From: a virus
Lineage: Duplodnaviria; Heunggongvirae; Uroviricota; Caudoviricetes
IMG/VR virus record: IMGVR_UViG_2609459845_000023
Coordinates: 1 to 21,924 of that record
Length of the DNA: 21,924 bases
Reading direction: 5' to 3' (one strand)
Shown here: in pieces, positions 4,064 to 8,367 of the stretch
Position numbering within the stretch: the stretch's first letter is position 1
How the letters are laid out: each line of letters begins with the position of its first letter
Notes under the pieces: generated by a model
Databases searched by the model: none
What the model saw: only the letters and a program-made list of their open reading frames with translations
What the model was told of the DNA's origin: nothing
Translations under genes and position numbers: made by a program

Positions 4064-4678
4064 TTATCTAAAAGTCTTTCCACTTTTAACGTCTAGGTAT
4101 ATTCTGTTCGACAACGTCATTCCTCCGCAATATGTGAAATAGATGTTTTTCCCCTTATTGCTTGATGCCATCCACCCTCCGATTTCCTTAAAGTCGCTTT
4201 CCGTGCAGACCCCTTCGTTTATTAACTTCCTAGCTGCCGAAGAAAACTCTTTTTTGTATATACGGTAGTCATCAGATCCTTTGATTAAAGTATCATCTCC
4301 GCTCGCATTTTCAGCAGGATCTGATGGCCTTTCACTGCTAAGATCACTAAGTTTAACCCATTCTGAAAACTTGCCATTGACGATTCCGTTTTTTCTTGTG
4401 CAGGATTTATTACCTTCTTTAATATATTCGCTTTCCCCTCCCACACATGAGGCTGAATATGGCTCAGTTATACGAACCCATTCACCTTTTTTTTCTAGAA
4501 AATCTACGCCTTCCCTGAAAAATAGTTTCCCAGCCACTCCACATTTACTTGAAGGGCAGGTATGTCTTTCCGTTCGATCAACAACAACCCAAAGTCTTGA
4601 TTCATTTTTTGCCATTGCCGATGGTATTTGAGATGAGACAATTAACGTAAGCCCTAAAATTAGTATTGATTTTTTCAT
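4064..4678 (-). CDS. secreted/periplasmic Cys-containing hypothetical protein (204 aa)
   Basis: track ORF; N-terminal signal peptide MKKSILILGLTLIVSSQIPSAMA; SD AAGGA 8 nt upstream; AT-rich. Confidence 0.75.
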   Translation of the reverse strand: MKKSILILGLTLIVSSQIPSAMAKNESRLWVVVDRTERHTCPSSKCGVAGKLFFREGVDFLEKKGEWVRITEPYSASCVGGESEYIKEGNKSCTRKNGIVNGKFSEWVKLSDLSSERPSDPAENASGDDTLIKGSDDYRIYKKEFSSAARKLINEGVCTESDFKEIGGWMASSNKGKNIYFTYCGGMTLSNRIYLDVKSGKTFR

Positions 4679-4814: not shown

Positions 4815-5228
4815 CTAATTACATGGTACGTAAGCGTAAAATCCCGTTGGTTGTCGGGTAATAACTCTGATCAAATCTCCCTTGTCTTTTGCTCTTACGT
4901 ATGCAGCTCTTGTGTATTCAACCCAGGCCTCCAGTTCAGCAATACGCTTACTTCCATCCGAGATAACACCTTCTACTCACGCTGCTCGTTGAGTTTTGAT
5001 TTTTGCTGTCTCCAGCTCAACACGCAGTTTCCTCACCGTTAGCGCAATATCCTCGTTCTCCTGGTCGCGGCGTTTGATGTACTGCTGGTTTCTTTCCCGT
5101 TCATCCAGCAGTGTCAGCACAATCGATGGTGTTACCAGCTCATGGAAAAGGTCCGCGTCAAATCCCCAGTTGTCATGCATTGCCTGCTCTGCCGCTTCAC
5201 GCAGTGCCTGAGAGTGAATTACGCTCAC
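4815..5228 (-). pseudogene. hypothetical coiled-coil protein gene with in-frame TGA at 4977..4979 (83 codons + TGA + 53 codons)
   Basis: track ORF 4977..5228 (MSVIHSQALREAAEQ...AKIKTQRAA) continues in the same frame past TGA as VEGVISDGSKRIAELEAWVEYTRAAYVRAKDKGDLIRVITRQPTGFYAYVPCN to a TAG at 4815..4817. Confidence 0.5.
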
Positions 5229-5446
5229 TTCGAACCTCTCTGTTTACTGATAAGTTCCAGATCCTCCTGGCAACTTGCACAAGTCCGACAACCCTGAACG
5301 GCCAGGCGTCTTCGTTCATCTATCGGATCGCCACACTCACAACAATGAGTGGCAGATATAGCCTGGTGGTTCAGGCGGCGCATTTTTATTGCTGTGTTGC
5401 GCTGTAATTCTTCAATTTCTGATGCTGAATCAATGATGTCTGCCAT
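5225..5446 (-). CDS. TraR/DksA-family C4 zinc-finger protein (73 aa)
   Basis: track ORF with CxxC...CxxC spacing (CCECGDPIDERRRLAVQGCRTCASC) typical of phage TraR/DksA-type zinc fingers; stop overlaps the start of the downstream ORF. Confidence 0.7.
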   Translation of the reverse strand: MADIIDSASEIEELQRNTAIKMRRLNHQAISATHCCECGDPIDERRRLAVQGCRTCASCQEDLELISKQRGSK

Positions 5447-5495
5447 CTTTCATTAATCCCTGAATTGTTGGTTAATACGCTTGAGGGTGAATGCG

Positions 5496-5522
5496 AATAA
5501 TAAAAAAGGAGCCTGTAGCTCC
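5496..5522 (-). terminator. intrinsic terminator (GGAGC-TACAG-GCTCC + U-run)
   Basis: minus-strand read GGAGCTACAGGCTCCTTTTTTATTATT immediately downstream of the 5545..5760 ORF. Confidence 0.55.
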
Positions 5523-5544
5523 ATGATGATTTTGTTTTTCATGC

Positions 5545-5760
5545 TCACCGTTCCTTAAAGACGCCGTTTAACATGCCGATCGCCAGGCTTAAATGAGTCG
5601 GTGTGAATCCCATCAGCGTTACCGTTTCGCGGTGCTTCTTCAGTACGCTACGGCAAATGTCATCGACGTTTTTATCCGGAAACTGCTGTCTGGCTTTTTT
5701 GATTTCAGAATTAGCCTGACGGGCAATACTGCGAAGGGCGTTTTCTTGCTGAGGTGTCAT
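5545..5760 (-). CDS. hypothetical protein (71 aa from MTPQQENALRS; alternative upstream start at 5826 gives 93 aa)
   Basis: track ORF 5545..5826; the internal ATG at 5760 forms an ATGA overlap with the stop of a coupled 27-codon ORF; start uncertain. Confidence 0.5.
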   Translation of the reverse strand: MTPQQENALRSIARQANSEIKKARQQFPDKNVDDICRSVLKKHRETVTLMGFTPTHLSLAIGMLNGVFKER

Positions 5761-5840
5761 TGAACAAGTCCCATGTCGGCAAGCATAAGCACACAGAATA
5801 TGAAGCCCGCTGCCAGAAAAATGCATTCAGTGGTTGTCAT
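5757..5840 (-). CDS. putative 27-aa hydrophobic micro-protein (MTTTECIFLAAGFIFCVLMLADMGLVQ)
   Basis: hand-translated; ATGA overlaps at both ends (with the orf63-like stop and with the MTPQQ start); single hydrophobic stretch; alternative reading is the N-terminal extension of the 93-aa ORF. Confidence 0.25.
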   Translation of the reverse strand: MTTTECIFLAAGFIFCVLMLADMGLVQ

Positions 5841-6028
5841 ACCTGGTCTCTCTCATCTGCTTCTGCTTTCGCCACCATCATTTCCAGCTTTTGTGAAAGG
5901 GATGCGGTTAACGTATGAAATTCTTCGTCTGTTTCTACCGGTATTGGCACAAACCTGACTCCAATTTGAGCGAGGCTATGTGCCATCTCAATGCTCGTTC
6001 TTAACTCAACAGGAGATGCTTTGTGCAT
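5837..6028 (-). CDS. small early-left protein, lambda orf63-like (63 aa)
   Basis: track ORF; SD GGGGAG 6 nt upstream; size and position (between exo and xis) match lambda orf63; sequence identity to lambda not confirmed from memory. Confidence 0.5.
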   Translation of the reverse strand: MHKASPVELRTSIEMAHSLAQIGVRFVPIPVETDEEFHTLTASLSQKLEMMVAKAEADERDQV

Positions 6029-6183
6029 ACAGCTCCCCGTTTATTATTTATCTCCTCAGCCAGCCGCTGTGCTTTCAGGGGATTTCGGGTAACAGAAAGG
6101 CCGGGAAATACCCAGCCTCGCTTTGTAACGGAGTAGACGAAAGTGATCGCGCCTACCCGGATATTATCGTGAGGATGCGTCAT
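6001..6183 (-). CDS. small early-left protein, lambda orf60a-like (60 aa from second Met)
   Basis: track ORF 6001..6189; ATG at 6183 overlaps the exo stop (ATGA), giving 60 aa as in lambda orf60a. Confidence 0.45.
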
Positions 6184-6860
6184 CGCCATTGCTCCCCAAA
6201 TACAAAACCAATTTCAGCCAGTGCCTCGTCCATTTTTTCGATGAACTCCGGCACCATCTCGTCAAAACTCGCCATGTAATTTTCATCCCGCTCAACCACG
6301 ACATAATGCAGGCCTTCACGCTTCATTCGTGGGTCATAGTTGGCAAAGTACCAGGCATCTTTTCGCGTCACCCACATGCTGTACTGCACCTGGGCCATGT
6401 AAGCCGACTTTATGGCCTCGAAACCACCGAGCCGGAACTTCATGAAATCCCGGGAGGTAAACGGGCATTTCAGCTCAAGGCCGTTGCCGTCACTGCATAA
6501 ACCATCGGGAGAGCAGGCGGTGCGCATACTTTCGTCGCGATAGATGATCGGGGATTCAGTAACATTCACGCCGGAAGTAAACTCAAACAGGGCTCTGGCG
6601 TCATTCTCGTACTTTTTTCCCCAGGCCAGCGCCTTAGCGTTAACTTCCGGAGCCACACCGGTACAAATCTCAGCCAGCAGGGTGTGAAAGTAGGACATTT
6701 TCATGTCAGGCCACTTTTTACCGGAGCGGGGTTTTGCTATCACATTGTGAACTTCTGAAGCCGTGATGACGCCGAGTCGTAATTTGTTCCACGCATCATC
6801 TCCCTGTTCGACAGCTCTCACGTCGATCCCGGTACGCTGCAGGATAATGTCCGGTGTCAT
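6180..6860 (-). CDS. exo: lambda exonuclease (Red-alpha)
   Basis: 226-aa [67 protein letters not shown]..., recognised as lambda Exo. Confidence 0.97.
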
Positions 6861-8162: not shown

Positions 8163-8295
8163 TTTTTGGGACTCCTGGCTGATTAAGTATGTCGATAAGG
8201 CGTTTCCATCCGTCACGTAATTTACGGGTGATTCGTTCAAGTAAAGATTCGGAAGGGCAGCCAGCAACAGGCCACCCTGCAATGGCATATTGCAT
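8131..8295 (-). CDS. cIII: lambda CIII (FtsH inhibitor, stabilises CII)
   Basis: hand-translated 54-aa [57 protein letters not shown]; SD TAAGGAG upstream; below the track length cutoff. Confidence 0.9.
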   Translation of the reverse strand: MQYAIAGWPVAGCPSESLLERITRKLRDGWKRLIDILNQPGVPKNGSNTYGYPD

Positions 8296-8367
8296 GGTGT
8301 GCTCCTTATTTATACATAACGAAAAACGCCTCGAGTGAAGCGTTATTGGTATGCGGTAACGCCGCGC

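Follow-up and report, generated by a model that had tools for sequence, protein, structure and literature searches.

Bacteria encode small inner-membrane proteins of no more than 50 amino acids (aa), such as KdpF, AcrZ, MgtS and MgrB, as well as type I toxin peptides (Ibs, ShoB, DinQ, TisB, Hok) that are short, at 19–50 aa, and very hydrophobic. AUGA or UGAUG overlaps between consecutive genes, as found at junctions of the trp operon and in many phage operons, mediate termination-reinitiation coupling. Among temperate phages, lambda serves as the reference; its exo-xis block, studied for the lysis-lysogeny decision and the induction of Shiga toxin (Stx) phages, has been linked to the blocking of host replication initiation ('bin') and to a lysis-lysogeny bias (PMC9239242; PMC8614690). 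The blocks of lambda, 434, 933W and Phi24B contain the same genes in the same order as the stretch of DNA analysed here, the 21,924-nucleotide (nt) virus record IMGVR_UViG_2609459845_000023 (hereafter, the window), a lambda-type prophage that adjoins ybhC, i.e. the lambda attachment region, and carries its early-left operon on the minus strand. The published exo-xis gene list has no entry at the position of a 27-codon hydrophobic micro-open reading frame (ORF) within this operon (here termed p27; MTTTECIFLAAGFIFCVLMLADMGLVQ; 5757..5840, minus strand), which in lambda is covered by the 5′ end of the annotated orf61. We propose that p27 is probably a genuine, translationally coupled protein-coding micro-gene of the exo-xis block in the early leftward pL operon. 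The comparison makes it credible that the best-known temperate phage has a gene that was overlooked until now, namely p27, and that the Orf61 gene model is to be corrected.

The locus is phage lambda's own, much-studied exo-xis block, an identity missed by the original prediction, a reading of the bare sequence that had singled out the 27-codon ORF. An 851 nt-long segment (5400–6250) is 97.3% identical to lambda over its entire length (100% covered), and 95–99% identical to 434, DE3, 933W, VT2-Sakai, Phi24B and ~170 other phage records. The window follows the lambda order, with orf60a right after exo, then orf63, Orf61, orf73 and an Ea22-like gene. The segment comprising p27 and Orf61 is found in 3252 of 5426 complete E. 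coli genomes, in every case at an identity of at least 95%, and p27 itself is intact and 100% identical in lambda (LC730321.1, complement 30929–31009), 434, DE3, 933W, VT2-Sakai and Phi24B. Its annotation is blank in the RefSeq loci examined and reads 'hypothetical protein' in some entries of GenBank and UniRef; the NCBI annotation pipeline (PGAP) and the 434B and mEp332 records start Orf61 at MTPQQ (71 aa), leaving blank the 76 nt that hold p27. No description of the peptide was found in the published papers searched, and it is absent from the supplements of a study of intergenic small genes in enterohaemorrhagic E. coli Sakai and of a study of the Enterobacteriaceae microproteome. Comparison of p27 with NCBIfam, Pfam, PHROGs, PADLOC and PDB sequences returned nothing meaningful (best MtrF, E = 0.034; phrog_21538, E = 0.68). 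Two 428-aa glycosyltransferase-like proteins (P0006, P0007) that fell into its 90% protein cluster are unrelated and represent a clustering artefact.

On the minus strand, exo, orf60a, orf63, p27 and Orf61 follow one another as a chain, with ATGA start/stop overlaps at the exo/orf60a, orf63/p27 and p27/Orf61 junctions. The exo gene (226 aa; 6180..6860), taken from the ORF list, is annotated as 'lambda exonuclease family protein' in an identical RefSeq locus. Its TGA (6182–6180) overlaps the ATG (6183–6181) of a 60-aa ORF (MTHPHD...; 6001..6183), the orf60a homologue, which matches DUF1317 over its full length (PF07026, E = 2.4e-40); an alternative ATG at 6189 would yield 62 aa, PGAP taking the 60-aa start and the 434B record the 62-aa start. 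The orf63 homologue (63 aa; 5837..6028; DUF1382, PF07131, E = 3.3e-31), whose lambda counterpart is reported as characterised by nuclear magnetic resonance (PMC10869804), overlaps orf60a by 28 nt. Two TCAT tetramers on the plus strand then mark the ends of p27: at 5837–5840, the orf63 TGA shares bases with the p27 ATG, and at 5757–5760, the p27 TGA shares bases with the ATG of the 71-aa Orf61 (MTPQQENALR...; 5545..5760), the intact form of lambda orf61, with a phrog_303 match at E = 4.7e-36 and the start chosen by PGAP (WP_000188870.1). All start/stop overlaps that the original prediction had claimed among the exo, orf60a-like, orf63-like, 27-codon and MTPQQ ORFs are present in the sequence, and the identities it gave to the first three are correct, given the RefSeq annotation of exo and the two DUF matches. 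For such an anatomy, the orf63 stop has to be preceded and the Orf61 ATG followed by an A, the gap has to be in phase and 26 codons have to be free of stops; multiplying rough factors for these requirements (~0.25 x 0.25 x 0.33 x 0.29) puts the chance at an estimated 0.6%. The chief support for p27 is comparative, namely its intactness and the synonymous bias in its own frame, rather than this estimate.

The ATGA joint at the p27 start is kept behind three different upstream genes. In 40 loci (e.g. L134, 12000–12557), orf63 and the C-terminal end of orf60a have given way to a phage N6-adenine methyltransferase of 185 aa; the homology breaks exactly at the p27 ATG, the methyltransferase gene ends in ...GGGAGGCTGCATGA, the overlap is again ATGA, and p27 receives a strong GGGAGG Shine-Dalgarno (SD) sequence from its new upstream gene. 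A divergent orf63 allele (...CTTGCATGA) likewise retains the ATGA overlap with p27. In lambdoid phages, mosaic joints typically fall at gene boundaries, and a joint placed exactly on the p27 ATG thus argues that this codon is treated as a gene start.

We collected 346 usable copies of the region (224 haplotypes) from viral, metagenome and genome collections by means of anchors outside p27. The ATG, all 27 codons and the TGA are intact in 321 of 327 complete copies, and in four more Gln27 is changed to a stop, at the cost of the last residue only. The remaining exceptions are a 1-nt deletion (L235, a contig of 1.3x coverage) and one lost stop; the copies in which p27 is not intact are L235, L240 and L087, the last being that of Escherichia sp. 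E1V33 with a 14-nt deletion. Selection was assessed over the 76 nt of p27 that overlap no neighbour, using an omega-like ratio (hereafter omega) without phylogenetic correction. The 31 single-base variants fall 8, 7 and 16 times on codon positions 1, 2 and 3. Read in the p27 frame, 15 are synonymous and 16 non-synonymous where 24% synonymous changes are expected (omega ~0.33, p = 0.0023); among recurrent variants, i.e. those seen in at least two haplotypes, the ratio rises to 10:5 (omega 0.16, p = 5e-4), and those seen in at least five haplotypes are all synonymous (5:0). Most of the non-synonymous variants are conservative exchanges between hydrophobic residues. In the Orf61/93-aa frame, the same sites give an omega of 0.81 for all and 1.83 for recurrent variants, and then infinity, and in the third sense frame 0.91 (all) and 0.73 (recurrent). 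The corresponding values (all/recurrent) for control genes are 0.29/0.11 for Orf61, 0.51/0.34 for orf60a and 0.70/0.67 for orf63. By this measure, amino-acid constraint on p27 appears as tight as on Orf61, and tighter than on orf60a or orf63. As an RNA, the region folds no better than shuffled sequences (z = +1.5), leaving no structure that would explain its conservation, and it matched no Rfam family. With the amino-acid sequence conserved, and not merely the open frame, a functional peptide is favoured. Purifying selection in its own frame, the retained ATGA overlaps and the near-complete intactness across copies thus support the original suggestion of a true coding function for the 27-codon ORF.

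Several observations weigh against p27 as a coupled micro-gene for a membrane peptide. First, Orf61 can be present without it. In SfI-type loci (~3% of the E. coli matches), p27 is missing yet Orf61 is kept: in phage SfI, a 250-aa gene is followed by a 7-nt gap and then by Orf61, beginning at the equivalent Met (MTIEHNNALR...) behind a TGAGG SD of its own. In E1V33, the 14 nt lost from p27 bring its ATGA-coupled ATG into the frame of the retained Orf61, resulting in a 93-aa product. Since both keep Orf61, p27 and Orf61 appear separable and p27 dispensable for its neighbour. Second, all copies are at least 92–95% identical, and the selection test draws on 31 variants in 76 nt with phylogeny ignored. 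Third, no family match was obtained for p27, and profile and sequence searches detected no homologue outside the lambda exo-xis module. Fourth, its native SD is mediocre (−5.6 kcal/mol), and the extra peptides that a review of the lambda ribosome-profiling study lists for the block are of 7 and 31 aa, p27 not being among them (PMC8614690). Fifth, the peptide is an imperfect membrane segment, with an uninterrupted hydrophobic core of only ~15 residues, an Asp (Asp22) inside the putative helix and no basic residue to set topology.

Finally, the antisense frame that shares third codon positions with p27 also shows a low omega (0.40, p = 0.014) in the p27 segment. This could mean that the constraint stems from a gene on the plus strand, namely a 61-aa ORF at 5773–5958 (MSASISTQNMKPAARKMH...). 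A real gene is expected to impose its pattern on any antisense frame whose third positions coincide with its own. Compared with the p27 frame, the antisense frame gives a weaker signal, and in the two-thirds of the ORF that lie opposite orf63, omega rises to 0.82, which argues that it is a shadow of p27 and not a gene. Moreover, a promoter scan of 5200–6300 returned a single site, on the plus strand at 5472–5501 and thus ~270 nt upstream of this ORF, in line with the number expected by chance (one found, 1.2 expected); the site is not positioned to drive p27 or a short antisense RNA across it. We consider an antisense gene extremely unlikely.

p27 resembles coupled genes in its four-base overlaps at both ends, the weak SD of its downstream neighbour and the retention of the overlap when the upstream gene is swapped, and differs from the usual case in that the unit spans only 27 codons and shows constraint at the amino-acid level; the coupling itself is putative. 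Such an arrangement might serve merely as a relay, with p27 being translated to bring ribosomes from orf63 to the weak start of Orf61 and its peptide a functionless by-product. The ATGA at either end and the predicted SD duplex of Orf61 (−3.9 kcal/mol) fit this explanation, as does the Orf61 ATG having become GTG in 39 loci, through a synonymous CAA to CAG change in p27, which is consistent with a dependence on coupling. Furthermore, p27 always accompanies Orf61 in the phage set, and SfI, from which p27 is missing, has Orf61 with an acquired, strong SD. A relay should tolerate amino-acid change, whereas the p27 frame returned low omega values that fall further among recurrent variants, with every variant shared by five or more haplotypes being silent; its constraint equals that of Orf61 and exceeds that of orf60a and orf63, and those replacements that do occur mostly conserve hydrophobicity. 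This renders a pure relay function unlikely, in favour of a p27 gene whose peptide is itself selected.

The p27 region has been masked by its assignment to Orf61, a point that the original prediction missed. In lambda, the AAAAAA run of the MTPQQ gene is longer by one A than in the window, 434, mEp332 and most relatives (L002, 791–1007; window, 5545–5760), so that lambda orf61 is frameshifted where the window encodes an intact 71-aa Orf61. This extra-A (+1) form occurs in 21 of 324 sampled copies, most of which resemble laboratory lambda. Combined with an in-frame ATG further upstream, this frameshift accounts for the classical 61-codon lambda 'orf61', the first 30-odd codons of which cover p27 in a different frame. 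By sequence comparison, the classical gene thus appears to join the remnant left by the frameshift to p27 read out of frame, and lambda Orf61 has been noted to appear truncated and unfolded beside the Stx-phage protein (PMC8614690). Stx phages, in turn, usually annotate the Orf61 frame as a 93–103-aa protein, which again masks p27.

If this long form of Orf61 were real, the 27-codon frame would be a chance opening in its 5′ end and there would be no p27 gene. phrog_303 aligns across all 93 residues, the long form is the one given in many records (933W, Sakai, Phi24B and, truncated, lambda orf61), and the E1V33 locus offers an ATGA-coupled start with a good SD from which this frame continues into Orf61. 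An N-terminal helix is also part of the published AlphaFold and RoseTTAFold models of Orf61, which disagree on its placement (PMC8614690). The remaining evidence points the other way. In the window, the extension comprises 22 codons (MHFSGSGLHILCAYACRHGTCS; 5761..5826) that overlap p27 in another frame, and variation over these sites is unconstrained when read as Orf61. Its start is unstable, with 22 extra codons in 198 loci and 32 in 86, the difference being decided by a polymorphism at p27 codon 4 (ACT, ACG or ACA) that is silent for p27. Its predicted SD duplex (−3.8 kcal/mol) is weak, and AlphaFold2 models residues 1–22 of the window's 93-aa form with a predicted local distance difference test (pLDDT) score of 40–52, as compared to 73–91 in the three-helix core. 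We therefore rejected the 22–32-residue extension as conserved coding sequence. Since SfI starts at the equivalent residue and PGAP likewise picks it, the 71-aa Met would be the native N-terminus of Orf61, and both the '93-aa Orf61' and the 5′ part of lambda's annotated orf61 look like annotation artefacts over p27. The original prediction had named, as the observation that would speak against the small frame, its disruption in phages that conserve the overlapping 93-aa frame; among ~330 copies, this combination is seen in a single lineage, E1V33. Taken together, it is very improbable that the long Orf61 is the real product here and p27 none.

Two routes to a p27–Orf61 fusion were also discounted: inspection of either frame revealed no slippery heptamer for a programmed frameshift, and a ribosome reading through the UGA would continue in another frame, which is short. 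The name 'cell division protein ZapA', given by PGAP to some Orf61 copies, is probably wrong, because the Pfam match is sub-threshold (PF05164, 16.1 bits against a gathering cut-off of 23.8) and a fold search with the Orf61 model retrieved no PDB match at an E-value of 0.001 or better. A homologue search indicated the Orf61 family to be restricted to Escherichia-type lambdoid modules; two apparent divergent homologues with 51–52% identity (P0101, P0107) proved to be indel-ridden assemblies of the same module and were excluded.

Returning to p27 as a gene, we infer the following course of events. Ribosomes terminating at the orf63 stop would re-initiate on the overlapping AUG (AUGA) to produce the 27-residue, very hydrophobic peptide, and those terminating at the second AUGA would be passed on to Orf61, whose own SD is weak and whose true product would be the 71-aa MTPQQ protein. 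As calculated on the Kyte-Doolittle scale only, the 27-aa peptide has a grand average of hydropathy of 1.62 and a best 19-residue window of 2.33; its net charge is −2, and G12 and C16 form a small-xxx-small pattern (G12-x3-C16). It is predicted to reside in the inner membrane as a single helix of approximately residues 6–26 with a G12...C16 face. Since the peptide sequence itself is under selection, p27 presumably acts as a peptide, and by analogy with known small membrane proteins, it would most likely bind or perturb a host inner-membrane protein, or the membrane, in early lytic development.

With KdpF, AcrZ, MgtS and MgrB, p27 shares its size, a single strongly hydrophobic segment and the fact of having been missed by standard annotation. 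Unlike these proteins, to which it bears no sequence similarity, it has no flanking basic residues and a negative net charge, and its gene is no stand-alone unit but is embedded in an early phage operon and coupled to the genes on either side; the membrane localisation of p27 is a prediction. By this analogy, p27 is probably a small inner-membrane protein of the KdpF/AcrZ size class. It is likewise short and very hydrophobic in the manner of type I toxins, and toxicity upon over-expression is plausible; the toxic or host-modulating role raised in the original prediction is suggested purely by analogy. In contrast to type I toxins, p27 matched no NCBIfam or Pfam family, and Rfam and promoter scans found no antisense or adjacent small RNA gene. 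We rejected a type I toxin-antitoxin locus, as neither an antisense RNA nor a promoter of its own was found (Rfam; scan of 5200–6300) and p27 is internal to the pL operon.

None of the published effects of the exo-xis block is assigned to p27. In the published deletions of orf61, the annotated gene was replaced in its entirety (PMC6213356), and p27 was therefore lost too; frameshift constructs also hit p27. The ribosome-profiling 'confirmation' of lambda orf61 (PMC8614690) would separate the two overlapping frames only with phase information. It is conceivable, albeit doubtful, that some of the phenotypes ascribed to 'orf61' and the exo-xis 'orf' cluster (the lysis-lysogeny bias, host survival and prophage-induction kinetics) are due to p27 and not to Orf61. 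In that event, p27 would be a 27-residue early host-takeover factor, made seconds after pL fires and previously unseen, that is present in lambda, BL21(DE3) and most Stx phages. More generally, if p27 is real, the maps of lambda, 434, DE3 and the Stx phages miss a conserved gene that ~60% of the complete E. coli genomes carry, structural modelling has used a 93-aa 'Orf61' with a spurious N-terminal helix, and the published orf61 deletions are double mutants; mild phenotypes in lambda, where Orf61 is already frameshifted, could then come from p27 or from lost coupling. p27 would also provide a clean example of a same-strand overlapping mis-annotation that conceals a micro-protein.

The coupled chain runs on past Orf61, a continuation that was missed when the chain was originally described: the Orf61 TGA overlaps the start codon of a 31-aa ORF (5453..5548, minus strand), as GTGA in the window and ATGA in lambda. 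This ORF, present in the ORF list and annotated in the 434B, lambda and mEp332 records, starts at GTG 5548 or, as a 29-aa version with a good SD (−8.0 kcal/mol), at ATG 5542; its omega of ~0.52 is not significant (p = 0.07). A 31-aa peptide has been reported from lambda ribosome profiling (PMC8614690) and, matching in size, is probably the product of this ORF. Inside it, a terminator scan placed an intrinsic-terminator-like hairpin (GGAGCTACAGGCTCC followed by TTTTTTATTA; 5508..5522, minus strand), and this hairpin and its T-run correspond to the t2 terminator predicted between orf61 and orf73 (PMC4195576). Translation of the 31-aa ORF through the t2 hairpin suggests an attenuation-like control of read-through into orf73 and ea22.

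Further along the minus strand, the orf73 homologue (73 aa; 5225..5446) encodes a TraR/DksA-type C4 zinc finger protein (TIGR02419, E = 5.6e-15; PF01258, E = 7.7e-9; phrog_54, E = 2e-25), and a short Ead/Ea22-like ORF (4977..5228; PF13935, E = 9.3e-20) ends the conserved exo-xis block. With 83 aa from a GTG start, the latter is far shorter than lambda Ea22, and in NZ_CP027544.1, which matches the window at 100% identity over the p27–Orf61 segment (296 nt), the Ea22-like gene at this position carries an internal stop and is marked as a pseudogene. Between this gene and the int/xis end lies a 204-aa ORF (4064–4678, minus strand) with an N-terminal signal-peptide-like segment (MKKSILILGLTLIVSSQIPSAMA...), possibly a secreted or periplasmic moron product. 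Upstream of cIII, the lambda cIII thermoregulator RNA element (Rfam RF01804, 88.5 bits) was found at 8250–8308 (minus strand), as expected of a lambda-type early-left operon.

Other loci in the collection yielded two further observations. The E1V33 contig carries, in place of orf63, a 355-aa ORF with a DGQHR motif (L087, 371–1438) whose stop is ATGA-coupled to the 93-aa Orf61; by eye, its sequence suggests a DndB-like protein. Finally, a 100%-identical copy of the lambda-type frameshifted form is present on contigs labelled Shewanella, Bradyrhizobium, Paenibacillus, Kitasatospora, Oceanobacillus and others (L088–L101), several of them ~48.4 kb long. These almost certainly represent lambda DNA contamination of unrelated assemblies, which made up most of what the scan of genome contigs returned, and 'Campylobacter phage CJLB-4' (MW057783.1, 48.4 kb) looks like the same contamination.

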